Shown in pieces: positions 20,161 to 46,011 of a stretch of DNA of 64,000 nucleotides. How positions within the stretch are numbered: the first letter of the stretch is position 1; each line of letters begins with the position of its first letter. Source of the DNA: a virus. Its lineage: Duplodnaviria; Caudoviricetes. Under the pieces are notes generated by a model, which was not told the DNA's origin, made no database searches, and was given only the letters and a program-made list of their open reading frames with translations. Where the stretch lies: IMG/VR virus record IMGVR_UViG_3300005611_000007, positions 62,921-126,920 of that record, one strand, 5' to 3'. A program made the position numbers and the translations under genes.

Positions 20161-20388
20161 TTATTTTTTGTCAACAAAAAAATTCACGGTTTTGAAAAAT
20201 TCTGGTGTCATAGTTTCGAATCCACCACCTCGTTTCAAATTTCGAAACACCCTCTTTAATTTGTTCTCATCAGTTCCATAAGCAATAATTTTGTCTTCAC
20301 CCAAGATCCCATCGAATTCACGAATTCCATATTGTGGTTCTTTATCGTCTTCTACAGGATAACCCTCAAAAATATACATCTCTCTCAC
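20161..20388 (-). CDS. hypothetical protein
   Basis: GTGA overlap with gene 41; LKRGGGF...TPEFF. Confidence 0.55.
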   Translation of the reverse strand: MREMYIFEGYPVEDDKEPQYGIREFDGILGEDKIIAYGTDENKLKRVFRNLKRGGGFETMTPEFFKTVNFFVDKK

Positions 20389-21761
20389 CTCAATGTTGCG
20401 AATTTTTTCTTAAAATCGTTTTCGTATCTATCACCAAAGTCAGTATTATCCATTATAGGTCGATCATCAACCATTTCCTCCTGTGCTGATTGTTCTACAT
20501 CATATAATCTCATCTTACCTCTGTCAACCCCCACGACGAATCTTTTTTTATCGGTTGGGTCGTTAAAACGATTCTTCAACTGTTTGACCATAATCTGATT
20601 GAGATTTTCTAACTCTTCACTAGTGACCAAAGCAAACATCAAATCTACAGTAGCAGGTAGACCAAAAGACTCAGATGTATCTTCAAGCCCAGGATCAGAG
20701 TTTGTGTAACCAGACCGTGTAGTTTGAGTCGCTGTGACGATTGGAATATTTTTCTCAACAGCTAATCCTCTCATCTCTTCAGCGATTGCTTTAATGTAAG
20801 TGTAACTGTTGACATTAGCACCATACCTCAATCGCATAGAAGCACAGATATTGAGATAATCAACATACACGATATCTGGAACAAAGTTTCTTTTCAAACG
20901 AAGTTCATTCAGTAGATGTCTAAAATGCCCGACACCAGCAGTGGCAGTAGGATATTCTTTGATAATCAATCTACCTTCTGTCTTATCTCTAACTCTATCA
21001 ACCTTCTTCATATATGCTGCTTTAGGTAGTTCTTCTAGTTCTTTCAATGGAACATCTAGGAGGTTAGCATCGATGCGTTCAGCAATCCGTTCTTCTGCCA
21101 TCTCCATTGTGATATAGAGAACCTTACGATTATCCATTAAATTAGCAGCCGCAAAGTGACACATAGCAAGAGATTTTCCGACACCAGTGCCAGCCAGAAT
21201 ACAAGTTAAAGTTTTCTGTGGAAGCCCACCTTTAGTGATGCTATTAAGATAGTCTAGATCAAACGCAATACGATTTTCTATTTTATGATAGAAGTCATAA
21301 CGATCAGAGAAGTCTTCTAACCAATCATGACCAATGTGATTATCAAAACTAATAGAGAGTGCTTCAGAAAGAATCTCTGGAATCGCACCCTTTGTCTCCT
21401 TCTCTTTACCATCCATAATGTGAATGGATTTCATGATAGCATTATGAATAGCACGTTCCTGACAGAACTCTTCTGTCCTGTCAGTCAACCACTGTTCATC
21501 AATCTCACGATCTGTGAGTTGAGAAAGATATTTGATGCATGGCTCAAAGTCATTTTCATCTACATCGTCATTGTCAAGAGTGATACCAAGAATCTCTACA
21601 GTCGGTAGAGTGTTATATTCTTCAACGTGTTTCTTGATATATCGATACAGAGTTTTTTCTGTGAAATCGTTGAAATACTCATCTTTAAGAAATGGAAGAA
21701 CTTTCCTCGAATAATTCTCGTTGTGAATGAGATGACTCAGTATCTGTGTTTCCAGCCTCAT
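20385..21761 (-). CDS. 41: replicative helicase gp41
   Basis: LAGTGVGKS, TMEMAEERIAERIDAN, DYLNIC, SESFGLPAT. Confidence 0.95.
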   Translation of the reverse strand: MRLETQILSHLIHNENYSRKVLPFLKDEYFNDFTEKTLYRYIKKHVEEYNTLPTVEILGITLDNDDVDENDFEPCIKYLSQLTDREIDEQWLTDRTEEFCQERAIHNAIMKSIHIMDGKEKETKGAIPEILSEALSISFDNHIGHDWLEDFSDRYDFYHKIENRIAFDLDYLNSITKGGLPQKTLTCILAGTGVGKSLAMCHFAAANLMDNRKVLYITMEMAEERIAERIDANLLDVPLKELEELPKAAYMKKVDRVRDKTEGRLIIKEYPTATAGVGHFRHLLNELRLKRNFVPDIVYVDYLNICASMRLRYGANVNSYTYIKAIAEEMRGLAVEKNIPIVTATQTTRSGYTNSDPGLEDTSESFGLPATVDLMFALVTSEELENLNQIMVKQLKNRFNDPTDKKRFVVGVDRGKMRLYDVEQSAQEEMVDDRPIMDNTDFGDRYENDFKKKFATLR

Positions 21762-22128
21762 TTTCTTCCTTTTCATTCAAAGCAGTGATGATAATATGTA
21801 CTAGAATTCCACCAATATGATCATTGAAATGAATATTATTTTCAGTCAATTCGTGTGGATTTTTTACGAAATCAAAATCAAATTTCAAAGTTGCTTCGTC
21901 TTTTTCATCGATTTCTTTTACAGATATTGTATTGTATCTAATGATTGTACCATTATAACGTTCGTCAGTCAACCTAATAGGTACAGTTGATTTACCATCA
22001 TCTAGTTTATCTACTATTTCATAAGTATCGTCATACTGTGAAAATTTTTCAAGATCAATCTTCGGCACTATCCGTCTCACTCTGATCTGTTTCTCCATAA
22101 CCGCCAACGAGCTCTCTTTCTTCTCCAT
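21685..22128 (-). CDS. gp40-like head vertex assembly protein (start uncertain)
   Basis: Synteny between uvsX and 41. Confidence 0.5.
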   Translation of the reverse strand: MEKKESSLAVMEKQIRVRRIVPKIDLEKFSQYDDTYEIVDKLDDGKSTVPIRLTDERYNGTIIRYNTISVKEIDEKDEATLKFDFDFVKNPHELTENNIHFNDHIGGILVHIIITALNEKEENEAGNTDTESSHSQRELFEESSSIS

Positions 22129-23131
22129 ATTTGAATTCCTTTGCAGCAGCCTGTTCTAGTCTTTCCATGACATCTTCTGTAAAAAACTTTTCCGGTTCTG
22201 CGTTGATTGCTTTAGCAAAATGTTTAGATCCATCAGGAAACTCATAACGAGTTGATACCTTCTTGATAACATCGTACTTCTCGGCAAGGTCAAGAAGACC
22301 ATAATAACGATCCAAACCAGTCGTATAGTTTAGACGTACTTCAATCGTCTTATTTGGCTTGGTAAAACGTGACTTTTGTGTGCTAACTTTGATTAGATTA
22401 CCCTCATCCTTTTCAGTATCTTTATCTCTTTTCTTTGAAAGAAAAAGAATTGTAGAAGCGGTATACTTTAGACCAGAACCGCCAGACATTACTTTCGTTG
22501 GTATATAAGAACCAACTGCATCATATGTATGGTTTGTAATAACCATCGGAACCTGCGCTTTAGATAAACGTAGACCTAGAGTACGAAACGCAGCCTTAAT
22601 TACTTGCGCCTTGGTCATATCCCGAGTTTCTTTACCCTCGGTACTATCTTCCATTTCTTTTGTTGTAGATAATTGACCGAGAGAATCAAGAACCATCATC
22701 ATTGGTGGTCTATTATTTTTGTGTTCTGTGTATCTTTCTAAAACTTGTAACGCATTATGTCGAAACTGCTGAATTGTTTGTGGTTCAGATACAACAATAC
22801 GATGAATGTCAATACCACGAGTAGACATCATTTCCTGTGTTACTGCTGCTTCAGTATCATAATAGATAACGCCACCATGATCGTTTTGTTGTAAAAAGTT
22901 ATTGACCATTCCTAATGCAAAGAAAGTCTTTCCCGTTGCTTCTTCACCAGCGAGAGCAGTGATTTTGTTATTTGACACACCGCCGTAAAGACTGCCACTG
23001 ATAAGAGCATTAAGAATGAAACACCCAGTATCAACCCACCCAGAAAACTCAGAAGAATTACCACCATCGGATAAAAGATGTGTGTTTTCATCGTTGAGTT
23101 CCTTTACCATATCTTTAAAAAAATTAGACAT
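22055..23131 (-). CDS. uvsX: RecA-like recombinase UvsX
   Basis: AGEEATGKT, YDTE, LDSLG, SGGSGLKY. Confidence 0.95.
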   Translation of the reverse strand: MSNFFKDMVKELNDENTHLLSDGGNSSEFSGWVDTGCFILNALISGSLYGGVSNNKITALAGEEATGKTFFALGMVNNFLQQNDHGGVIYYDTEAAVTQEMMSTRGIDIHRIVVSEPQTIQQFRHNALQVLERYTEHKNNRPPMMMVLDSLGQLSTTKEMEDSTEGKETRDMTKAQVIKAAFRTLGLRLSKAQVPMVITNHTYDAVGSYIPTKVMSGGSGLKYTASTILFLSKKRDKDTEKDEGNLIKVSTQKSRFTKPNKTIEVRLNYTTGLDRYYGLLDLAEKYDVIKKVSTRYEFPDGSKHFAKAINAEPEKFFTEDVMERLEQAAAKEFKYGEERELVGGYGETDQSETDSAED

Positions 23132-23195: not shown

Positions 23196-23219
23196 CAACT
23201 TTTTTCATTTTACTGTTAT

Positions 23220-23250
23220 CTTTCTGCTCATAAATACGAGAGCAGAAGGA
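23220..23250 (+). promoter_or_regulatory. late-type promoter (CATAAATA) in the loop of an RBS-sequestering hairpin
   Basis: CTTTCTGCTC-ATAAATACGA-GAGCAGAAGG; SD AAGGA in the 3' arm. Confidence 0.6.
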
Positions 23251-23258
23251 TTAGCAGT

Positions 23259-24044
23259 ATGGTTCATTACCAGAGCATTTTTATATCAGACATCCATCTA
23301 GGCACAAGAGGATGTAAAGCAGACGAACTATGTGCCTTCCTTAAAACAAATACCTGTGAAAATCTATTTCTTGTGGGCGACATACTAGACGGTTGGCGTT
23401 TAAAGAAACGTTGGTACTTTCCGCAAAGCCACGCAAACGTAATACGCAGAATCCTTACAGCAGCCAAGCGCGGCACTAAAGTCTATTATATACTTGGCAA
23501 CCACGACGAAGCACTTCGTCCATACGTTTCTTACAATATAGACATTGGTCGCATTAAAGTCTTAAATCGTTATACATACAATGCTGTTAATGGTAAGCGT
23601 TATCTTGTTATCCACGGTGACTTCTTTGACAAGATAATGACAGACAACAAATGGCTAATGTTTGTTGGCGATAACATCTATGATTTCCTCATCTGGACGA
23701 ACACTAAACTAAACATAATTCGTGGCTGGTTAGGGATGGACTACTGGAGTCTATCCAAGTTCCTAAAAGCAAAGACAAAACAGGCACTAAACTTCATACA
23801 TAAGTTTGAAGAACACGTAGCAAAATACTGTGAAGAAAAAGGTTATGACGGTATTGTCTGCGGACACATACACACAGCGGCAATGAAGAATGTAAACGGC
23901 ATTGAATATATGAATGATGGAGATTGGGTAGAAAGTCTAACTGCACTTGTAGAACACGAAGACGGTCGCTGGGAGATTATCTATTGGGAGGGCAAAGATG
24001 GAATAGATCTTATTGATAACAGCGATGCACGTGAACAATCCTGA
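23259..24044 (+). CDS. plcP: PlcP-like phospholipase C (LpxH-like metallophosphoesterase)
   Basis: FISDIHLGTRGC, LVGDILDGWRL, GNHDE, HGD, CGHIH, NDGDWVES; followed by GT4 gene. Confidence 0.75.
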   Translation: MVHYQSIFISDIHLGTRGCKADELCAFLKTNTCENLFLVGDILDGWRLKKRWYFPQSHANVIRRILTAAKRGTKVYYILGNHDEALRPYVSYNIDIGRIKVLNRYTYNAVNGKRYLVIHGDFFDKIMTDNKWLMFVGDNIYDFLIWTNTKLNIIRGWLGMDYWSLSKFLKAKTKQALNFIHKFEEHVAKYCEEKGYDGIVCGHIHTAAMKNVNGIEYMNDGDWVESLTALVEHEDGRWEIIYWEGKDGIDLIDNSDAREQS

Positions 24045-24097
24045 CGATGTTCCTGTACGTATTGGATAAAGTTCAAACAGTTTAAGTTGGAGACAAA

Positions 24098-25099
24098 ATG
24101 TCAAAAAAAATCCTCATTATAACAGATAACATACCGGAGCAGATAAATGGAGTTGTCACTACCTACAAAAACATTGAACCGTATGCGTTACGCGATGGTT
24201 ATACTATTGATTATATCCATCCCGGCCGGTACCGCTACATTGATCTCCCTTTCTATAACGAAGTCAAAGTTGCCATTCCGAGAGATATGGGACAAGAGAT
24301 TCAGAAGATACGTCCAGATTATATCCACATCGCCACGGAAGGTCCTATCGGTGTGTTTGCTAGAAGGCATCTTGCAGTATCTGGTCTTAGGTACAATACT
24401 GCTTACCATACTAAATTTCCTGAAGCTCTAAAGAAAATGCTACACATACCAGAGTTTATTACTTGGCCATTAATACGCTGGTTCCACGCAAAGTCAAACA
24501 AGGTATTAACAACTACGCCAAGCATGGTAAAACAACTACGAAGCAAAGGATTTGGCGATAATGTTGTACCTTGGACACGAGGCGTTGATAGAGATCAGTT
24601 CTTCCCCCTACAATATCGTTCAGAGCGTAAGGTGCCTGTGCTGTTATGTGTAAGCCGTGTAAGCGAAGAAAAGAACCTAGAAGAGTTTTATGAGATGGAC
24701 TTTGGAGAGTGTGTAAAGGTACAGGTAGGTGATGGTACTATGCTTGAAACACACAAGAAAAAATATCCTGATGTTCAGTTCGTAGGAGCCAAGCGAGGAG
24801 CAGGACTTGTCCGCCATTATCAAGAAGCAGATGTATTTGTATTCCCAAGTCGCTGGGATACATTTGGTATTGTAATGATTGAAGCAATGGCGTGTGGTAC
24901 ACCTGTTGCGGCATATCCTACACAAGGACCTGTTGATGTTATTGAACAAGGTGTTACTGGATACATGGATGAAGATTTAGTAACAGCAACAAAACAAGCA
25001 CTTACACTGGATCGCAACGCAGTTTATAATAACAGCACAAACTGGAGTTGGGAAGAAGCCTGGCATATTTTTAGAGATAACTTGGTTAAGATAGTATAA
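24098..25099 (+). CDS. agt: GT4 glycosyltransferase, Agt-like diacylglycerol glucosyl/glucuronosyltransferase
   Basis: QINGVV, IHIATEGPIG, YHTKFPE, SRVSEEKN, FPSRWDTFGIVMIEAMACGTPVAA. Confidence 0.7.
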   Translation: MSKKILIITDNIPEQINGVVTTYKNIEPYALRDGYTIDYIHPGRYRYIDLPFYNEVKVAIPRDMGQEIQKIRPDYIHIATEGPIGVFARRHLAVSGLRYNTAYHTKFPEALKKMLHIPEFITWPLIRWFHAKSNKVLTTTPSMVKQLRSKGFGDNVVPWTRGVDRDQFFPLQYRSERKVPVLLCVSRVSEEKNLEEFYEMDFGECVKVQVGDGTMLETHKKKYPDVQFVGAKRGAGLVRHYQEADVFVFPSRWDTFGIVMIEAMACGTPVAAYPTQGPVDVIEQGVTGYMDEDLVTATKQALTLDRNAVYNNSTNWSWEEAWHIFRDNLVKIV

Positions 25100-25161: not shown

Positions 25162-25617
25162 CTATTTCTCGTTAAAAAACTCTCCTGACAAGATCTTCTC
25201 AACTTTTTCCATTTGTTTTTCAATGATAGGACCACGACCAGGCCAATGGATATACTCCTGGTTTTGTGTCCTATACAAACTTGAAAGCAGCGGCATAACA
25301 ATCTTTGCCATCTCATTCACTTTCTGATTGGCAACACTGTCTGCTAGTTGCTTTCGTTCTTCTACGATGGTATCATTATCATATATCAAACTAAGTAATG
25401 TGTCAACTTTTTTTTCCATATTTCTTAAACTATCTAACTTTCTTTCAAGTCGTTGTTCAAGCGATGCCAAATCATCTTTAGCAGCAAGAGCGGGTTTATC
25501 TGCTCTGACCAAGTCTTCTTCTTCAATGACCTTCTTACGATATGTGTCCTCATCAACGGCTGTAAGACCAGAAGTCCATCCGGTCATATCCATATCGTCC
25601 CAAATATTCTTACTCAT
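25162..25617 (-). CDS. conserved T4-like hypothetical downstream of gene 43
   Basis: VMPLL...EYIHWPGR; start re-called. Confidence 0.6.
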   Translation of the reverse strand: MSKNIWDDMDMTGWTSGLTAVDEDTYRKKVIEEEDLVRADKPALAAKDDLASLEQRLERKLDSLRNMEKKVDTLLSLIYDNDTIVEERKQLADSVANQKVNEMAKIVMPLLSSLYRTQNQEYIHWPGRGPIIEKQMEKVEKILSGEFFNEK

Positions 25618-28099
25618 GAAAGAAGTCCTCCAAGTTGTTTTGTTTCTCAGCATTCCAACCCATAGCATCAAGAATAATTTTGACTGGATCTAGAAAAGTT
25701 TTCTCAAGCTGAGTATCATAGTCAATATATTGTGCCAACTCAAACTCTTTTGGCAGGACGGTTACAAATCCCATAACATTTTCCATAATGGGATTTGGCA
25801 TTTTCATATATAGAAACTTCATCTTGTTACCAGATTGGATCTGCTCATACTTACTAGTTAACTTATGTTTCTTCAATTGGTCATTGTATAATAGTGCAGC
25901 ACGAACATGTATTGGCGTACCGGATTTATATAGACTTGAGCTATCTTCAAACTTTCGAACATCTGATACACCACGAGGGAAGGCGATTTCTTCTGGTGTT
26001 AGATCCATCCACTTTTCTCGTAACTCTTCAATCCATTTCTGAACTTCATCTTCACTTTGAGTTACCACCTTCTTCAGTGTATCCATAATCAATTCTTTGA
26101 CTATCTGCGGAGTAGAAGAACGAACGGCTTCAATACCAGTCACTTTCAACTTTGGTTCAGCAAATCTCACACCTTCACTGTCCCAAACATGTGCAATGTA
26201 TCGTTTCTTCGCTGTCCAGATGGCTTTATCGGCGATGATTTCACGTTTCATCACCATCTTCTGTTGTGGTGCTTTCATATAGTCAGCAAGTTGTTGATAC
26301 CCTTTATCTAGATGTTTCTCAATTTCTCCTGATGCTTTGTTTAGAAAGTCTACGATCTTTGTCTTGTTTGTCTCATTTGGTAGTATCTTCTGTACCAATG
26401 GACTCATGTTGAGATACACAGAATCGGTATCAATCGCAATAACATAGTCTTCGTTAGTCTTCAGTATATTGTTTAGATATTCATTAAGAATCTTCTCAGC
26501 CCATCTAATAGTAAACTGACCTGATACAGTTATTGCCTCTGCAACACGTTGATCAAAATATCTGAAATATTTATTTGCTAACGCTCCATAGAAAGAGTTC
26601 ATTGCAATCTTGATAGCCATCTGGTTGTTGTCGAGAATGGATATCTCTCGTTCAATACTTTTAGATTTTTCCTTCTCATATCTCTGTTTTGCGTCTATCA
26701 TATTTTGTTTGATAACAACTCTTTCATTGTAATATGATTGAATAACCTGTGGGATGATACCTTCTATGTCATTACGAAACAACTGACCTGTAGCAGTAAG
26801 ACACATTCCATTTGGTATATCTAAATCAGGCATCTCTAGTAGTTTATCAACGTTTACTCCAGATACAATATCATTTACTACAGTCTCTGGACTCATATTG
26901 TATTGCATAATGAGATGTGGATAAAGTGAATTCAAATCAAAAGAAACTACCCAATTATGAAGACCTACCTGCGGATTTTTAACGTAACCACCTTCAATTG
27001 TATCATACCGTGAATCGGTCTTAGGTGGAACTACAATTTTTCTAGATTTGAACTCGTTATACAGTATAGCATCCCATATACCAACAGTACCAAGAGTTTC
27101 TCCTAAAGAACATTTAGCGCGATAAGCCATGGTAAGTACTAAGTCAATCAGTCCTAACTTATCTTCAATCTTATCAACCAACTCAACGTCTTTTACATTA
27201 TACTCTACGAACTTTTGATAGTCATGCTTATATAGCATATGCAAAGAACCATACTCACTATAGTCTAATTTCTTCTCACCTAAAACTACATTAGCGATAT
27301 GATCTAGTTTATAAGATTCTTGTTGTCCTAATGTATTAATTGTAAATTTTTTGAATAAATCAATATAGTCTAATTGCGTAACACCAACTATGTTGAAACC
27401 AACATGTTGAACTCCGGCGATATATACGTTGTTTTCACGAACAAGTTTCCATGGTGACAGAGACTTCACCATATCCTCACCAAAGATTCTTGCAATACGA
27501 TTGACAAGATAAGGCACATCAAAAAACTCTGAATACCATCCAGTAAGAATATCTGGAACATGATCAGCCCAATAATCAATGAAATCTAATAGCAGTTCTC
27601 TCTCGTTTTTGCATTTACGATAGAGAACAGACATTCCGCTTTTGTCTGGATTGAAGTCATATAATCCCCATGTGTGGTAGATAGTACCATTATTATTTTT
27701 GATAGTAATGGTAATGATCTCATGTTTAGCATCACGTGGTTCTGGAAATCCGTCTTCTGATGCTACCTCAATATCGATTGTACAGATATTGATACGAGTA
27801 CGATCATACTTGATTGTCTTAGGAAATGCGTCTGAAATGAATTGATGGACATAGTTGGTTGTTCCATACACCGTGAAGTTATCTACATCGGCATACTTGT
27901 CCATAAACTCTTTACAATCTCTCATAGATCCAGGTTGTACAGAATCTACAGTACGTCCATCGAGAGTATTCCATGTACCCTTTGGTGATGGAATGTAAAG
28001 TGTTGGTTCAAACTTGACCTTCTTAGTAATCTGTGTCTTGTTATTGTAACCACGAAACAGAATCTGATTACCGTATCGATCTACATTAGTGTAAAAAAT
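25610..28099 (-). CDS. 43: family B DNA polymerase gp43 (likely ATT start)
   Basis: DIEV exo I, SFDLNSLYP, KIAMNSFYG, AIDTDS, KKRY; C-terminal LEDFF. Confidence 0.97.
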   Translation of the reverse strand: MFYTNVDRYGNQILFRGYNNKTQITKKVKFEPTLYIPSPKGTWNTLDGRTVDSVQPGSMRDCKEFMDKYADVDNFTVYGTTNYVHQFISDAFPKTIKYDRTRINICTIDIEVASEDGFPEPRDAKHEIITITIKNNNGTIYHTWGLYDFNPDKSGMSVLYRKCKNERELLLDFIDYWADHVPDILTGWYSEFFDVPYLVNRIARIFGEDMVKSLSPWKLVRENNVYIAGVQHVGFNIVGVTQLDYIDLFKKFTINTLGQQESYKLDHIANVVLGEKKLDYSEYGSLHMLYKHDYQKFVEYNVKDVELVDKIEDKLGLIDLVLTMAYRAKCSLGETLGTVGIWDAILYNEFKSRKIVVPPKTDSRYDTIEGGYVKNPQVGLHNWVVSFDLNSLYPHLIMQYNMSPETVVNDIVSGVNVDKLLEMPDLDIPNGMCLTATGQLFRNDIEGIIPQVIQSYYNERVVIKQNMIDAKQRYEKEKSKSIEREISILDNNQMAIKIAMNSFYGALANKYFRYFDQRVAEAITVSGQFTIRWAEKILNEYLNNILKTNEDYVIAIDTDSVYLNMSPLVQKILPNETNKTKIVDFLNKASGEIEKHLDKGYQQLADYMKAPQQKMVMKREIIADKAIWTAKKRYIAHVWDSEGVRFAEPKLKVTGIEAVRSSTPQIVKELIMDTLKKVVTQSEDEVQKWIEELREKWMDLTPEEIAFPRGVSDVRKFEDSSSLYKSGTPIHVRAALLYNDQLKKHKLTSKYEQIQSGNKMKFLYMKMPNPIMENVMGFVTVLPKEFELAQYIDYDTQLEKTFLDPVKIILDAMGWNAEKQNNLEDFFHE

Positions 28100-28112
28100 G
28101 ATAAACCTCCTT

Positions 28113-28171
28113 AAAAAAATGGGAGAGCATTGATACTCTCCCATTATAGTCTATGGAGTTATAGATGTCAA
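28113..28171 (-). terminator. terminator hairpin overlapping a consensus promoter (TTGACA-17-TATAAT) for gene 43
   Basis: AATGGGAGAG/CTCTCCCATT stem plus U-tract; -35 at 28166-28171, -10 at 28143-28148. Confidence 0.7.
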
Positions 28172-28260: not shown

Positions 28261-28424
28261 TAGATATATCCCTTCCTAGTATAGATTGAGTAGTGTTGAG
28301 TATATCCGTTAGCGATAAGTTTCTGTCGTCTTTCGAGTTCAGCGTGATCCTTAGCGCCGCTTAGAAAATCTTCTTCCCAACTGTATGAGAAAAACTTTTT
28401 TACCTTTGAAAATAACTTACTCAT
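28260..28424 (-). CDS. 54-aa DUF3563-like protein
   Basis: EDFLSGAKDHAELERRQK; overlaps hsp20 stop. Confidence 0.5.
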   Translation of the reverse strand: MSKLFSKVKKFFSYSWEEDFLSGAKDHAELERRQKLIANGYTQHYSIYTRKGYI

Positions 28425-28881
28425 TTAGTAACTGTGTTGCCTCCTTTGTCTCTTCTTTAGCCGTGTTAATGCTAACTTTCCTCGGCTTCTTATGGTCTGG
28501 AATGATGTTTTCGAGGAAGACCTTGAGCATTCCGTTGACAAGAGACGCATCCTTAACTTCGATTGTGTCAGCGAGGTTGAACGTCCGTGAGAAGGCACGA
28601 TTAGCAATCCCCTTATGTAAGAAGTTATCGTTATCGTCAGATGTCTTACCTGCAATCTTCAAGACATCGCCATCAATCTCAATTTCGATATCAGACTTAG
28701 AGAAACCAGCAACAGCAATCTCAACGATATATTTGTTCTCTTCGACCTTACGAATATTATAAGGCGGATACGATGGAACGTTCTTTGATAATGTATCGTT
28801 GAATTCATGAAGACGATCATGGATTCGATCGAAACCAACAAAGAATGGTGAATTTAATAGGGAAAGAATGTCTTTAGTCAT
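28417..28881 (-). CDS. hsp20: small heat-shock protein Hsp20 (IbpA-like)
   Basis: YPPYNI, IAVAGF, HKGIANRAFSRTF, NGML; start re-called after AGGAGG. Confidence 0.92.
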   Translation of the reverse strand: MTKDILSLLNSPFFVGFDRIHDRLHEFNDTLSKNVPSYPPYNIRKVEENKYIVEIAVAGFSKSDIEIEIDGDVLKIAGKTSDDNDNFLHKGIANRAFSRTFNLADTIEVKDASLVNGMLKVFLENIIPDHKKPRKVSINTAKEETKEATQLLNE

Positions 28882-28888
28882 CTTTTGA

Positions 28889-28950
28889 CCTCCTAGTTTA
28901 GCAAGGTTATGTTGTGTGATACCCATTCGGCGTATCACAATTTTATTTAG
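28889..28950 (-). promoter_or_regulatory. late-type promoter plus ROSE-like RNA thermometer 5'UTR
   Basis: CTAAATA; hairpin TGTGATAC/GTATCACA; CCUUGCU-AAACU-AGGAGG. Confidence 0.7.
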
Positions 28951-29015
28951 TTTGGACTCTCCCAAAAGTCACACCACTTTACCGTAACTCAGGTATGCAG
29001 GTGTCGCATATCTAT

Positions 29016-29519: not shown

Positions 29520-29561
29520 TAATATAATATCAGTCGTATTAAATGTCAACCCTTTTTTTCA
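29520..29561. repeat. 42-bp direct repeat, copy 1 (contains minus-strand promoter)
   Basis: taatataatatcagtcgtattaaatgtcaaccctttttttca. Confidence 0.9.
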
Positions 29562-30251
29562 AAAATCGATATTTTCCTTTACGAACAATTGTTCCATGTC
29601 ATCATGATTAATACGAAATGCGGTGCCACGATTACGAATACCCTTACCAATCAAATTCTGTGTTCGCATACGAGTATCGATGGAAATAAGATTATCTTCG
29701 ATGGCAGTACGAAACCGATTCTTATCCGTCCCTACTAGATGGAATGCTTCATTATAATGAAAGTATTCCACACCTTTTCGCCACTCTACATCTGCAATTA
29801 CTGACACACATGCAGGAAACTTCTTTGCAAACTGGTCAACTAGAGTATTCCAGCTCCACTTAACGATGACAGTATCATCATGCACAACACTACAGTAGTC
29901 ATCAGTGGTCTTGATAGATAGATCACGATTGTTAACAGTCTTAGTGATAGTGCAGTTTCCACTCATCTCTCCATCATGAGAGTTGCAAGGAAGACCATAG
30001 TTTGCAATATAATTTTCCTTAGATACAACCCATTCGCCTTCGAGACTGTATAGAGTTTGCTTTCCACCTGCACCACGTCGCCGCGCTTTCAACTCCTCTT
30101 CGTCAAGATCGGGAGCAGAAATACAATTCTCTTCTAGTCCCAACTCTTGCTCTAGCGTATGACCCACACCAGTGTTGCCTGCGCGCCGAGTCTTAATAAA
30201 TCCCCGGTCACGAATTTTTGCTAAACTTCGTTTGAATGTTGAAAAATCCAT
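29559..30251 (-). CDS. MvaI/BcnI-family restriction endonuclease-like protein
   Basis: GNTGVGHTLEQELGLEENCISAPD...ELKA...RNRGTAFRI. Confidence 0.75.
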   Translation of the reverse strand: MDFSTFKRSLAKIRDRGFIKTRRAGNTGVGHTLEQELGLEENCISAPDLDEEELKARRRGAGGKQTLYSLEGEWVVSKENYIANYGLPCNSHDGEMSGNCTITKTVNNRDLSIKTTDDYCSVVHDDTVIVKWSWNTLVDQFAKKFPACVSVIADVEWRKGVEYFHYNEAFHLVGTDKNRFRTAIEDNLISIDTRMRTQNLIGKGIRNRGTAFRINHDDMEQLFVKENIDF

Positions 30252-34328: not shown

Positions 34329-35189
34329 TCAAGTGAAAAAATCATTCAAATCATTACTTTTAGATTTATATGACTTACTCCAATTAATGCGAGTTTTTCC
34401 ATAATTTCTAAATCCTCCTTCGAGTCTTATATGACCAGAAGAACCTGGTTTATATAATATCTCATATATTCCAGGAAACATTTTTTCTATCTTTTTATGA
34501 TCATTTAATGTTTGTTCTTCAGTTTGTTTATCCCATATAGTTGATTTAATGGATTTATTTTTTACACTATGATTAAAAGTTATAAACTCTTGACTAACTC
34601 TATTACCAAAACCTCTAACTAATAAAGATAATAAAAAAACTATATCTTCTGCTACTTTAGTTTCTGTTAAGTTTAAATCTGATAAAATATCAGAAAAATC
34701 TTTGCCGTTTATCCAATAAGCACTTGTCATAGAAGTATTTTTACTATAGATTTCACCTGATGGTGGATTTTCACTTAATGCACAACCACAAACTGTAACA
34801 TCATCTTCATCTAACCAATTTGAAAATAATTCAAACATTCTATTTACATCATTGTCATCACAATCTTTTTTAGATTTTTCCATATTTGATACATCGGACC
34901 AATATTTAGAATTTCTACGACCAAATGTAATATCATCATCTAGCATAGCATATTTCATATCTTGACCAGCTTCATATATTACTTTTCTAGTCTCGGAAAT
35001 TGCTCTAGGATGTTCTGTTGTAATATGATCCGGTAATATTAAATATTCGGCATCATAATTATATTTTTCTCGTTCCCATTTCTGTACTACAAAAACTACT
35101 TTTTTCTTCAATTCATCCGGTAAGTTATTATATGTAATTTGATTATCTACACGATTTACTGTAAGAATAAATATTTTTTCAATATTCAT
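34329..35189 (-). CDS. glycosyltransferase-like protein (TAGT/GREB1-related), clamp-binding-like C-terminus
   Basis: MLDDD, AED; ends DLNDFFT. Confidence 0.6.
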   Translation of the reverse strand: MNIEKIFILTVNRVDNQITYNNLPDELKKKVVFVVQKWEREKYNYDAEYLILPDHITTEHPRAISETRKVIYEAGQDMKYAMLDDDITFGRRNSKYWSDVSNMEKSKKDCDDNDVNRMFELFSNWLDEDDVTVCGCALSENPPSGEIYSKNTSMTSAYWINGKDFSDILSDLNLTETKVAEDIVFLLSLLVRGFGNRVSQEFITFNHSVKNKSIKSTIWDKQTEEQTLNDHKKIEKMFPGIYEILYKPGSSGHIRLEGGFRNYGKTRINWSKSYKSKSNDLNDFFT

Positions 35190-36582
35190 AATCTCTAATC
35201 AACTCCAAACCATAGTTGTTAACTTCTTTCTTCACTTTTATACTTTTTGATAGAACGGGCTTGTTCTTTTTAAATTCACTATAATCAACATAGTGATGCC
35301 ATCTATCAAATTTCCAAACATTTCTTGAGACATCAGCATGACCCATTGTAATAAGCATATCTGATTTATTACTAGTACCATGAAGAATTACGTCATCTTG
35401 ATCTTCAACAGCATAAAACTCATCGGTATTGCCACCTTTAGTTGTCTGTGTTGCTGCTTTGCCTTGTAGAAAAAAATTGAATTGACACGTACACAAACCA
35501 TCTTTCAATATACGCAAAGACAAATCAGTATCTTCATTGTATCTGCCACGCCATTTATATTTCTCCATACTTGTATCAATTAACAATGCTGAATAGATTC
35601 TAGTATTCATTACATATGGTGGATACTCACTGTTAGGAGCAATAAAGAATCTATATTGTAAACCAGATACGGGTATGTTTTCATATCTATCAATAAAATC
35701 TTCACATGCTCTAAACAGTACACCAGACTCTACACGAATTCTTTCGTTTTTGTATAATCTATAAAAATCATGTATATTGTCATCAAAAACCCAATATCTT
35801 GCAAAACCATTATTCTTAGCATGATCCCAAGCGAAGTTACGAGCAGCACCAGGACCCACACGAGGATTACTGTATCCTTCATCATCACAAGTATCATACT
35901 CTTCTTTGTATTTGTTGTCAAGAACAATTACAGTACAATATCGTGAATCTGCGGTTTCTAGATATTTTTCATATTCATGTTCTTCGACTACCATATAAAA
36001 TTTTACACGCATTCTTTCAAGAGAATTAGCAGTTGCACGAATATTTTTTTCATATCTACCTTTAGATACAATATAGAGTGGATATCTTGGTTCTAGTTCT
36101 TTAACACCATCAGAGATTATCCATCGTAGTTTTTGATTCTCTGTTCGCTCTAATTTAGGATACCAGATACTTTTAGTTTTATTTGAAAGATTCTGATTCA
36201 ATATTTTAGACAGTTCTTTTAGATAAGATTCGTCTTCTAGATGAAGTGTTATTTGCATATAAGGATGATTGTTTTCTTGTATAAAATCTGGCATATTTTG
36301 CCAAGATTTTTGCCAAGATTTTTGTTTACGAGATTTCTTTTCTTTCTTCTCAAAAAAAACCTTCTGACTCTCTGTATACAAATTGTTGACAGGATAATGA
36401 ATAAGTTTTGTTTCTTCGGTTATATCAATATTTAATAAACGACTGAAGTTTTGCACATCTTCATTATTTCTAAATGAAACATATATTTCTTTCTTCAGTT
36501 TTTTCTGATCTTGATCATACTTTTGTGCTTTGACAAGTTTTGCTTCGTCTTCTTTGTTATGTTCAAATAATGTACTTATCAT
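35179..36582 (-). CDS. TET-associated/GREB1-like DNA glycosyltransferase with duplicated N-terminal domain
   Basis: YPLYIVSKGR, GPGAARNF.WDH, WVFDDNI, TRIYS, WRGRYNEDTDLSL, KGGNT. Confidence 0.75.
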   Translation of the reverse strand: MISTLFEHNKEDEAKLVKAQKYDQDQKKLKKEIYVSFRNNEDVQNFSRLLNIDITEETKLIHYPVNNLYTESQKVFFEKKEKKSRKQKSWQKSWQNMPDFIQENNHPYMQITLHLEDESYLKELSKILNQNLSNKTKSIWYPKLERTENQKLRWIISDGVKELEPRYPLYIVSKGRYEKNIRATANSLERMRVKFYMVVEEHEYEKYLETADSRYCTVIVLDNKYKEEYDTCDDEGYSNPRVGPGAARNFAWDHAKNNGFARYWVFDDNIHDFYRLYKNERIRVESGVLFRACEDFIDRYENIPVSGLQYRFFIAPNSEYPPYVMNTRIYSALLIDTSMEKYKWRGRYNEDTDLSLRILKDGLCTCQFNFFLQGKAATQTTKGGNTDEFYAVEDQDDVILHGTSNKSDMLITMGHADVSRNVWKFDRWHHYVDYSEFKKNKPVLSKSIKVKKEVNNYGLELIRDYEY

Positions 36583-43626: not shown

Positions 43627-44002
43627 TGATACCCTTCATTATTTCTTCCAAAACATCAACAATTTCTTGTTGCATAGATATTTTTAAATTCATTTCAATC
43701 ATTTCAGAATCTGAATCCACATAATCATTTATATCAGCCTTCAAAATGGTTTTTAACTGGGGTTGTCTACCAATCTCAGTTAAGTCTTCAGGATTATTTA
43801 AATCACCTCTGAAGTATTCAGATAATGTTTTGGCAAGTTGTTTTTTCTTTAAAAATAGACTTTTGAGTTTAAGTCTTTCTTTATATAATATTGATAGATA
43901 CTTAGCATGTAATACAGGAATATTTAAACTTTCTGTATCTAGTTCAACACTATCAATTGGAGCGTCTTTTCTCCAAGCTTCGGCAATATCTTCAATTTTC
44001 AA
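43562..44002 (-). CDS. uvsY: recombination mediator UvsY
   Basis: IPVLHAKY...IRNSIEWRR; synteny. Confidence 0.88.
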   Translation of the reverse strand: MKIEDIAEAWRKDAPIDSVELDTESLNIPVLHAKYLSILYKERLKLKSLFLKKKQLAKTLSEYFRGDLNNPEDLTEIGRQPQLKTILKADINDYVDSDSEMIEMNLKISMQQEIVDVLEEIMKGINGRNWIIRNSIEWRRLTNFGQ

Positions 44003-44039
44003 GATTTAAATCCTTATTCACGATTAAAAATATATTATA

Positions 44040-44543
44040 TCACACAGACTCTATTGTGTAAAGAGTATATCTAAAAGTAACAGTGGCTTCTAGATAATCA
44101 ATATCAGTAGCAGTAGTTGAGAATGTAAGTTCAGATAGAGATTCGGGAAACATATTCTGAAACTTTACACGAAGATTAGGATTATATTTACTTGATAGAA
44201 TTGATAAAGTAGCATCAGATACGTTTCTCTGATTTCTGCTAAGTTGTTGAAAGTTTTTATATTGGTCAAAATTTTCTGGTGATCCTAATCCAACTAACCA
44301 ATTATATATCTCTAGATAATTTATCATATCTTCGTCTACACGAAAAGTCAAGTTAAAAGGAGAGTATGTAATTTTTTCTCCAGCAAGAGGAATATCAGTA
44401 AAAGGATTGGTTTGATTAGAAGTACCAATAGATACTGAAGGTATACTAGCTGATTGTGAAAAATATGACACTGTTGGTATTCTATCTAATACCAATCTGA
44501 AACCTGTCTGTCCTAAAAAGTTTTTGTTATCAGGAGTTGCCAT
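44040..44543 (-). CDS. 3: tail completion/sheath stabiliser gp3
   Basis: NFLGQTGF, FRVDEDMINYLEIYNW; late promoter 44573-44580. Confidence 0.85.
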   Translation of the reverse strand: MATPDNKNFLGQTGFRLVLDRIPTVSYFSQSASIPSVSIGTSNQTNPFTDIPLAGEKITYSPFNLTFRVDEDMINYLEIYNWLVGLGSPENFDQYKNFQQLSRNQRNVSDATLSILSSKYNPNLRVKFQNMFPESLSELTFSTTATDIDYLEATVTFRYTLYTIESV

Positions 44544-44580
44544 ACAATGTATCCTTTATAATATCAACTATTTATTTATA

Positions 44581-44610
44581 AAAAAAGAGGGGAGCTGAAG
44601 CCCCCCTCTA
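44581..44610 (-). terminator. terminator after gene 23
   Basis: agaggggagc/gcccccctct stem plus U-tract on minus strand. Confidence 0.7.
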
Positions 44611-44640
44611 GTTCTCGTTGGGTTAAACCCAATCTTATTA

Positions 44641-46011
44641 TTACATAAGATTTGAAACGGTAACAGTACGATAGTAGATATTCTTTTTCGCAAAAGAGAT
44701 AGCACCATCGGCAGCGGTTGTTGCAAAAGGATTAGCGACGATGCCGTAGCGAGTCTTAAATCCAATTTTTGGCTGGAAGGTATTCTCGCCAACTGCACGA
44801 ACCATCTGTAGTGGAACATATGGGCAGTAGAAGAGACCAGCATCAAATGCGCTTGAACCCTTGTAACCAATGGTGTAGTACTGATCACCAGAGGCGCTTG
44901 AGAAGTATGGGTCAACATAAACGCGGACCCGACCATTTAGCACACCAGCGAAAGTGTTACCTGTATCGTCTACGTTTAGGTTGGAACTGAGTGCTGGAGT
45001 GTAATCAAGAACACCAGCCATCTGTAGGGCAGAAGCTACGTCTGAACCACAGATTAGAACGTTACCCTTACCACGCCGGGTTGACTTGGCGATTTGGTTA
45101 GCGTCGCGCTCGATCTGGAAGATTAGACCCTTGAAGCGTTCTACTGACCAACGACCGTTTGCATCAACGTCTAGGTTGAAAGTACCAGCGGTTGTTACGT
45201 TATCCTGAGCACCTGCGGTAGCGGTATAGTTGATTGTACGAACTACTTCGCGGTTGATTTCAGCGAGGATTTCAGCAGATAGGATGTTGGCTAGTTCTGT
45301 TTCTGCGTCTAGACCGTGAATAGCCTTTAGATCTTGGGCTAGTTCCATGGTGTACTCAGCTTTAAGGGCGCGAGATACAGCAGTTACAGAGACCTTCTCA
45401 ACTGAGAAAGCCATTTGTTGGAATGCGTTCGTAGAACCATCGCCGAGAGCTTCTGCTTCAGCGGTGGTCATGCCAGTGCCGACGGTATACCCAGTACCTG
45501 ATGCACGATCGGTTGGATCGCTACCAGATTGAGCATTATTACCAGCGTCGTTAATAACACCGAGAGATGCAGTATTACCAGAAGCAGAGGCAGAAAATGT
45601 GGTTACTGCTTCGTTATAGAGGGCTTCGTCGCCACCTTGAGTTGAGAAACGTGAACGCATCGCGAAGATTAGACCTGTTGGACCAGTCATTGGCTGGACA
45701 CCGCAGACATCGTATGCGATCATATTTGGCATTGAGCGACGAACTAGTGAAATGAGGACAGGATCGAAAATATCGACTGAACCGTCACTAGCGGTAGAAG
45801 AAGAAGCGCCCATAGCATTAGCTGGTGCTGCTTCGCCTAGTAGTGTTGGCATATGATAACCGCCAGAACCAAAGGCAGCTTCACGTGAAGCTTTCTCCTG
45901 GTTTTCGAGAAGTGTGGCTGTAACAGCGCGCTTGTGAGAATCCTTGATGTCAGCGAGATCAGGATGCTCAAGAACTGGTTGCCACTTCTTGACTAGATCT
46001 TCAGTTAGCAT
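44641..46011 (-). CDS. 23: major capsid protein gp23
   Basis: GVQPMTGPTGLIFAMR, SRALKAEYT.ELAQDLKAIHGLDAE; late promoter 46047-46054. Confidence 0.98.
   Translation of the reverse strand: MLTEDLVKKWQPVLEHPDLADIKDSHKRAVTATLLENQEKASREAAFGSGGYHMPTLLGEAAPANAMGASSSTASDGSVDIFDPVLISLVRRSMPNMIAYDVCGVQPMTGPTGLIFAMRSRFSTQGGDEALYNEAVTTFSASASGNTASLGVINDAGNNAQSGSDPTDRASGTGYTVGTGMTTAEAEALGDGSTNAFQQMAFSVEKVSVTAVSRALKAEYTMELAQDLKAIHGLDAETELANILSAEILAEINREVVRTINYTATAGAQDNVTTAGTFNLDVDANGRWSVERFKGLIFQIERDANQIAKSTRRGKGNVLICGSDVASALQMAGVLDYTPALSSNLNVDDTGNTFAGVLNGRVRVYVDPYFSSASGDQYYTIGYKGSSAFDAGLFYCPYVPLQMVRAVGENTFQPKIGFKTRYGIVANPFATTAADGAISFAKKNIYYRTVTVSNLM

Follow-up and report, generated by a model that had tools for sequence, protein, structure and literature searches.

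Bacterial lipid renovation by the phospholipase C PlcP and the glycosyltransferase Agt is a response to phosphorus starvation (PMC4796936), and the arrangement in which plcP is followed by agt has been described as the "type 2" operon (Sebastian et al. 2016, PMC4796936). In SAR11 strain HTCC7211, plcP was validated by complementation and agt by heterologous expression (PMC4796936). Validated examples are PB7211_983 (plcP) and PB7211_960 (agt, identical to GTcp) of HTCC7211 as well as PA3219-PA3218 of P. aeruginosa (PMC8528852), and identities between validated members amount to 46-47% for PlcP and 35-41% for Agt (PMC8528852). Here we analyze a gene pair of this kind from an uncultured T4-like marine myovirus, represented by the 126,920-bp IMG/VR virus record IMGVR_UViG_3300005611_000007 (completeness estimate, about 70%), the final 64 kb of which are referred to as the window. 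The genes plcP (23259-24044, plus strand; 261 amino acids [aa]) and agt (24098-25099, plus strand; 333 aa) probably form a two-gene auxiliary metabolic cassette that reproduces bacterial PlcP-Agt lipid renovation in the infected cell and thereby provides the phage with phosphorus.

In the window, agt starts 53 nt downstream of plcP, and the same order, with agt directly after plcP, was found in about 40 sampled cellular loci, e.g., of Kordiimonas, Croceicoccus, Roseomonas, Parvibaculales, and seven SAR11-like genomes of 1.2 to 1.6 Mb with a low guanine-cytosine (GC) content (the alphaproteobacterial tally comprised 144 matches, one of them from genome G245). The window PlcP is 44-66% identical to cellular PlcPs encoded beside agt, and the window Agt shares 36-46% identity with the proteins encoded after plcP in cells. 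These values are comparable to the span between validated members and thus support the family placement, which for PlcP rests on taxonomic relatives of the validated MED193, SMc00171, and PB7211_983.

The first gene product is a PlcP-type (LpxH2-type) metallophosphoesterase and predicted phospholipase C, whose match to the calcineurin-like phosphoesterase domain (Metallophos, PF00149; 59 bits) bears out the metallophosphoesterase named in a first-pass annotation of the same DNA. The metal ligands D11, H13, D41, N81, H119, H203, and H205, together with His82 of the motif G80-N81-H82 (GNH), show no variation among 53 aligned relatives from viruses and cells. E. coli LpxH has Arg in the column of His82, and LpxH alone, in every species of known sequence, carries Arg in place of the motif His (PMC5016852). 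The residues Y141, R155, W163, S164, S166, K170, and K174 of the helical insertion are invariant in the PlcP family alignment and mostly different or absent in E. coli LpxH. The predicted structure (predicted local distance difference test [pLDDT], 88) comprises a catalytic beta-sandwich and inserted helices at residues 120-194. The window protein branches within alphaproteobacterial PlcP in trees rooted with either E. coli LpxH or high-GC alphaproteobacterial sequences, and E. coli LpxH is located on a very long branch outside the PlcP family. The protein is hence a clear PlcP ortholog, and its predicted activity, the conversion of phospholipid to diacylglycerol (DAG), is well supported by these comparisons.

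The second gene product matches PF00534 (72 bits), PF13439 (47 bits), and PF13692, in agreement with the GT4 enzyme proposed at first pass. For GTcp of HTCC7211, a His104-Asp256 dyad has been described, with Asp where other GT4 enzymes carry Glu, and the group motifs GRVAxEKN and FPSxTDTFG as well as the residues whose mutation abolishes activity have been mapped (bioRxiv 10.1101/2021.03.25.437072). Every one of the latter is kept in register in the window Agt (G18, G82, G85, H104, T160, R161, R187, K192, D254, T255, F256, G257, E262, and W318). Among 48 aligned sequences, H104 is invariant, and the position of D254 is occupied by Asp in 46 and by Glu in two viral sequences. The DAG pocket of GTcp (His104, Thr162, Arg163, and Trp320) corresponds to H104, T160, R161, and W318; across the family, Trp and His do not vary, Arg is exchanged only for Lys, and the position of Thr is variable. 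The window motifs read SRVSEEKN and FPSRWDTFG and retain the mutagenesis-tested residues (R, K, D, T, F, G, and then E); the nearest viral subclade reads SRVSxEKN and FPSxWDTFG throughout, and the published motifs are found unaltered in the cellular relatives. The predicted model has a GT-B fold (pLDDT, 93.6), with the GT4 enzymes BshA, MshA, and PimB' among its best solved matches. In a tree with limited cellular sampling and no non-Agt outgroup, the viral sequences are located on the same side of a branch whose Shimodaira-Hasegawa-like approximate likelihood ratio test support is 95%. The essential residues, the largely retained motifs, and the identity to plcP-linked genes thus speak against an unrelated GT4 enzyme, an outcome that the first-pass annotation had considered, and the predicted activity of an Agt/GTcp-type DAG glycosyltransferase is well supported.

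The pair is widespread in viruses. A scan of IMG/VR revealed at least 110 viral contigs with a plcP relative, and the following counts are based on the best 80. A complete agt is located directly downstream of plcP in 46 of them, 26 have at least 1.1 kb of downstream sequence without a GT4 gene, and in the remaining eight, the contig end is too near to plcP to judge. At least 14 of the 26 contigs without GT4 encode a GT2/GT21-like transferase of about 236 aa after plcP, e.g., L037 (8746-9468), L047 (8746-9450), L052 (8907-9614), L065 (8781-9494), and L079 (6277-6984), an arrangement that resembles the bacterial plcP-pgt types. Accordingly, two non-homologous transferases are coupled to plcP in viruses, as they are in bacteria, and a lipid-type glycosyltransferase almost always follows the viral plcP directly, often with overlapping reading frames. 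A gene for UDP-glucose dehydrogenase (ugd) follows GT2 in part of the contigs and adjoins a GT4-type cassette in others (L052, 9661-10410; L057 and L061, 9740-10483; L063, 7355-7993), which is consistent with a supply of UDP-glucuronate for glucuronosyl-DAG; it was not found on the contig of the window itself.

Many of the plcP-bearing contigs have further T4-like genes in common with the window. The cassette is situated upstream of gp43 and co-directional with it in L066, L082, and L084, and in a region homologous to window positions 41-44 kb in L035, L036, L058, and L062. The isolate Pelagibacter phage Mosig carries plcP alone, adjoining pstS, under the annotation "putative UDP-2,3-diacylglucosamine hydrolase." The viral copies have median ratios of nonsynonymous to synonymous substitution rates (dN/dS) of 0.039 (PlcP) and 0.085 (Agt), i.e., both genes are under strong purifying selection. 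Porin_5-like and full-length TonB-dependent receptor genes were observed directly 3' of the plcP cassette in several viral contigs (L065, 9638-10594; L079, 7128-8081; L092, 8803-11304; L090, 9875-12325), and these outer-membrane uptake proteins appear to be phage encoded.

The upstream region of plcP contains several candidate control elements. A Pho-box-like direct repeat, TTTTCAT-TTTA-CTGTTAT (23202-23219, plus strand), is located 57 nt upstream of the start codon and has three mismatches to CTGTCAT-N4-CTGTCAT, a match reached in 0.7% of random 153-nt windows of viral loci. In the positive control, 35% of the cellular plcP upstream regions had at most four mismatches, compared with a background of 3.8%; for the viral plcP upstream regions as a group, the enrichment is weak (10.6% versus 5.2%), and the repeat is only suggestive of a PhoB site. 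A stem-loop of 19 pairs (23211-23259, plus strand) has a 3' arm that includes the Shine-Dalgarno sequence AAGGA (23246-23250) in its paired part and extends as far as the A of the start codon. The predicted RNA fold of -28.3 kcal/mol (z = -7.0) was equaled in stability by none of 200 shuffled sequences, and contig L037, whose PlcP is 74% identical, has the same hairpin design with compensating changes (-27 kcal/mol; z = -6.3).

The hairpin loop harbors a T4-type late-promoter-like motif, CATAAATA (23229-23236, plus strand), 30 nt before the ATG of plcP. All 11 copies of the sequence TATAAATA within the window are on the minus strand; 10 of them are situated 32 to 64 nt upstream of minus-strand genes, most of them structural, a distribution as expected of T4-type late promoters. 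The sequence NATAAATA is present in just three copies on the plus strand, one of them at plcP. Of 64 distinct regions upstream of viral plcP, 12 have a TAAATA core at positions -48 to -18 (background, 1.7%), and in seven of those 12 it lies within a hairpin loop. A scan of the 53-nt gap between plcP and agt for promoters and terminators returned no calls; the gap contains a putative ribosome-binding site of agt, GGAG (24089-24092, plus strand), as read from the sequence, and the two genes are presumably co-transcribed. The sole terminator call, at 25047-25064, was rejected as an intrinsic terminator after agt, as it lies inside the agt coding sequence and is within chance expectation. Taken together, these elements suggest late expression of the cassette, possibly modulated by PhoB.

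The genes around the cassette add a phosphorus context. PstS and PhoH are encoded on the contig outside the window, and a minus-strand open reading frame (ORF) at 37474-37953 matches Na_Pi_cotrans (PF02690) with 58.9 bits (cut-off, 29.1). The Na/Pi transporter-like gene noted at this position in the first-pass annotation thus holds at the domain level, in the form of a single-repeat protein of 159 aa. Cellular Na_Pi_cotrans transporters are much longer proteins with two repeats. Neither PHROGs nor a set of 50,697 isolate phage records contained a match to the ORF, which adjoins genes for peptide deformylase and MazG.

According to the mechanism that we propose, PlcP would act in the cytoplasm as a dinuclear-metal phosphoesterase whose helical insertion would bind lipid, and it would remove the phospho-head group from host glycerophospholipids to yield DAG, to which Agt, a retaining GT4 enzyme, would transfer glucose or glucuronate from a UDP-sugar. 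The bilayer would remain intact as glycolipid, while phosphorus would leave the membrane pool. Host phosphatases would recycle the freed phospho-head groups into phage nucleotide synthesis, alongside the products of the phage PstS, PhoH, and Na/Pi transporter-like genes. Expression would be late, from a T4-type late motif within a hairpin that would block the translation of longer transcripts, and host PhoB may tune it. The enzyme activities, this timing, and phosphorus supply as the selective benefit to the phage are what we infer from the genes and their surroundings.

Several observations weigh against this proposal. PlcP would release phospho-head groups and not free phosphate, and a phage phosphatase did not turn up, albeit no search was aimed at one. 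A late-promoter-like motif fits a supply of phosphorus for DNA less well than early expression would, the motif itself matches at seven of eight positions (C for T), and an upstream plus-strand promoter that would make the hairpin block necessary was looked for and not found. Further points are the three mismatches of the Pho-box-like site, the replacement of Gly by Ser and of Thr by Trp at two motif positions relative to cellular Agt, and the best isolate-phage matches of gp43, which are Synechococcus T4-like phages with about 51% identity.

The same chemistry might serve another purpose, namely to change the surface or the physical properties of the host membrane rather than to gain phosphorus, with superinfection exclusion, envelope stability until lysis, or altered receptors and porins as possible benefits. 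The late-promoter-like motif suggests expression after the onset of replication, lipid renovation is known to alter membrane proteomes and phage attachment (PMC9804370, PMC9938194), and porin-like or TonB-dependent receptor genes follow some of the related cassettes. On the other hand, pstS, phoH, and the Na/Pi transporter-like gene on the contig, pstS in Mosig, and the Pho-box-like site upstream all connect the cassette to phosphorus, as does the starvation response to which the pathway belongs in cells (PMC4796936). We therefore regard a membrane-directed purpose as rather unlikely as the main one; the two purposes are not mutually exclusive.

The reading as a lipopolysaccharide (LPS) or O-antigen modification module, composed of an LpxH-type UDP-2,3-diacylglucosamine hydrolase and a GT4 enzyme acting on LPS, has annotation on its side. 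The Joint Genome Institute (JGI) labels relatives of the window PlcP "LpxH," as the annotation of Mosig does in substance; LpxH ranks first among the NCBIfam models as well as among the solved folds; O-chain modification has been proposed for pelagimyophage glycosyltransferases (PMC7029224); and viral "lpxH" is catalogued among auxiliary metabolic genes (AMGs) for LPS (PMC10653327, PMC9611531). However, the LpxH models score far below their cut-offs (NF003743, 53.3 versus 134 bits; TIGR01854, 36 versus 190), a phmmer search of solved structures with the window PlcP gave no match at an E value of <0.01, and the structural match to LpxH has an identity of 17-18% and a template modeling (TM) score of about 0.55. 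Moreover, the hallmark Arg is replaced by His, the insertion residues differ from those of E. coli LpxH, the tree places the protein with PlcP and not with LpxH, the grouping that the first-pass annotation had named as refuting its reading, and the GT4 enzyme has in large part the DAG-transferase motifs of GTcp. The LpxH reading was rejected on these grounds, and an LPS module is very improbable.

There is similarly little to recommend a PlcP that acts alone, as a lysis aid or for DAG production, next to a GT4 enzyme that glycosylates DNA, protein, or teichoic-like polymers. Neither GT4 nor GT2 was found beside plcP in some viral contigs, including Mosig, and a separate TET-associated DNA glycosyltransferase implies that glycosylation is used elsewhere in the phage genome, but the nearly constant position of a lipid-type glycosyltransferase directly after plcP, the retained DAG-binding residues of GTcp (His104 and the equivalents of Arg163 and Trp320), and the co-occurrence of ugd in several viral contigs, which fits glucuronosyl-DAG synthesis, make it hardly credible. 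An assembly chimera, which the first-pass annotation had allowed for, or a decaying cellular passenger might explain the orientation opposite to every neighbor and the slightly higher GC content, but is very unlikely to the point of being negligible in view of the dozens of independent contigs in which the genes are located, at several sites, amid a T4-like core, and of their intact frames, invariant catalytic residues, low dN/dS (0.04-0.085), and phage-type upstream motifs.

With respect to the origin of the cassette, the viral PlcPs including that of the window form one clade with a long stem (support, 100/100), distinct from SAR11-like and other alphaproteobacterial copies. A recent capture from SAR11 was rejected, as the SAR11-like genomes are just 44-53% (PlcP) and 37-40% (Agt) identical. 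The nearest cellular relatives found are those of Hyphomonadaceae, the family of Henriciella, in which 18 of 61 genomes have a copy 60-66% identical to the window PlcP, and the comparisons define the phage genes as a distinct, mainly viral subfamily. That the clade is purely viral had to be rejected, since a verrucomicrobial (Coraliomargaritaceae) and a Henriciella metagenome-assembled genome (MAG) carry viral-type plcP in genuine chromosomal contexts (L003, 5887-6771, and L028, 5983-6813). The chromosomal neighbors of these MAG genes are aspartyl-tRNA synthetase, Lpt genes, and HPr kinase, and acyl-CoA synthetase and glutathione S-transferase. In the tree, viral lineages enclose the Hyphomonadaceae group with support values of 92/80 and 93/83 (moderate), and the copy of the verrucomicrobial MAG is positioned deep within a viral subclade, a topology that suggests a possible transfer of plcP from phage to cell.

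The genomic setting of the cassette is that of a T4-like replication core. Nearly all supported genes of the window are encoded on the minus strand, and plcP and agt are the only supported plus-strand genes; the ORF map and the Pfam families of the flanks agree with the first-pass description of the only multi-gene plus-strand unit in the window, situated between uvsX and gene 43. All remaining plus-strand ORFs of at least 100 aa overlap longer minus-strand ORFs, and those tested had no family support, whereas their minus-strand partners did. The GC skew in 2-kb bins loses its negative sign solely at the cassette and in one other bin, and the GC content of the cassette is 0.40-0.41, compared with 0.364 window-wide. 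The other positive-skew bin (44001-46000) has a raised GC content of 0.427 and minus-strand genes, and it coincides with a 456-aa ORF (44641-46011) that is preceded by the late promoter TATAAATA.

The cassette is flanked by a uvsX-like recombinase gene of the RecA/UvsX type (22055-23131, minus strand; RecA, PF00154, 68 bits), on whose side a sigma-70-like promoter (23195-23167, minus strand; TTGACA-17-TATGAT, 11 of 12 positions matching) diverges from plcP, and by the gp43 family-B DNA polymerase gene (25610-28144, minus strand; DNA_pol_B, 118 bits). An ORF between gp43 and the cassette (25162-25671, minus strand) converges on agt, and a DnaB-type helicase gene (20385-21776, minus strand) is a further neighbor of the region. 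The affinity of gp43 to Synechococcus phages leaves an assignment to pelagiphages unsupported; a ribosomal protein S21 gene and psbA were looked for and neither was found, tRNA genes were absent from the 64-kb window, and a megablast search against isolate phages gave no matches. The closest metagenomic proteins are up to 93% identical. Elsewhere in the window, a 467-aa protein with a TET-associated glycosyltransferase domain (35179-36582, minus strand; PF20691, 136 bits) points to glycosylated hypermodified DNA bases in the phage. A gene for an MvaI/BcnI-family restriction endonuclease (29559-30251, minus strand; 122 bits), beside which no methylase was noticed, is located near one for a phage HSP20 small heat-shock protein (28417-28965, minus strand).

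A search of the full-text literature, i.e., outside subscription journals, yielded no publication in which plcP is linked to a phage gene or an AMG, and a pelagimyophage survey contains no mention of plcP. Viral "lpxH" has been listed under LPS biosynthesis for viromes of Eastern Mediterranean surface water and of Lake Baikal (PMC10653327, PMC9611531), and these entries probably represent the same genes as phage plcP; the PlcP assignment corrects a recurrent annotation error. A broader proposal, on which as a whole we remain tentative and just short of persuaded, is that phage lipid renovation constitutes a widespread and so far unrecognized class of phosphorus-stress AMGs in aquatic T4-like phages, which would be modular (plcP combined with either agt or GT2 and optionally with ugd, porin, or pstS), expressed late via a promoter in a hairpin, and mislabelled "lpxH / LPS biosynthesis" in viromes, would explain part of the "SAR11-like" or unassigned plcP signal and of the glycolipid signal of phosphorus stress in ocean data, and would have passed plcP to Hyphomonadaceae and a verrucomicrobium.

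In a small oligotrophic bacterium, membrane phospholipid is among the few sizeable internal phosphorus stores, and the DNA of a T4-like phage is costly in phosphorus. A complete phospholipid-to-glycolipid pathway in a phage would extend the phage phosphorus genes by a kind that draws on an internal pool instead of on uptake, and it would confer the capacity for remodelling on hosts without it. Infection, besides phosphate scarcity, could then raise glycolipid-to-phospholipid ratios and plcP counts, both of which serve as markers of marine phosphorus stress. The cassette represents a directly testable system, in that it comprises two short genes, plcP mutants exist, and assays for the lipids are established.

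In comparison with known systems, the phage cassette is most similar to the bacterial PlcP-Agt operon, with which it shares both protein families, the gene order, the tight spacing, a candidate Pho-box-like repeat upstream, the predicted chemistry from phospholipid via DAG to glucosyl- or glucuronosyl-DAG, and the mutagenesis-tested residues of GTcp. It differs from the operon in its location in a lytic T4-like phage, inverted between uvsX and gp43, in forming a separate subfamily with 44-54% (PlcP) and 36-44% (Agt) identity to SAR11-like and other alphaproteobacterial copies, in the hairpin that is predicted to sequester the ribosome-binding site and that harbors the late-promoter-like motif, and in the Agt motifs SRVSxEKN and FPSxWDTFG. 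The window PlcP is built like LpxH, its best solved structural match, as both have a calcineurin-like catalytic domain into which helices are inserted and share the seven metal ligands; it is set apart by GNH instead of the LpxH-specific GNR, by the low identity of 17-18%, and by its insertion residues, model score, and tree placement.

The T4 genes e, soc, and I-TevI are translated from late transcripts only. The upstream region of the phage plcP resembles this type of control in that a late-promoter motif lies in a hairpin whose 3' arm holds the ribosome-binding site, and it is predicted that, as in e, soc, and I-TevI, only a transcript starting at the late promoter would free this site. The differences are the motif CATAAATA instead of TATAAATA and the lack of an identified early plus-strand promoter. 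Finally, cyanomyophages reportedly carry the phosphate-stress genes pstS, phoA, and phoH, in work ascribed to Sullivan 2010, Zeng and Chisholm 2012, and Kelly 2013. The cassette is comparable to these AMGs as a set of host-derived starvation-response genes that are plausibly controlled by host PhoB, and pstS and phoH are present on the same contig. However, the known phosphate AMGs raise the uptake or scavenging of external phosphorus, whereas the phage cassette would mobilize the internal phospholipid of the host membrane and rebuild that membrane.

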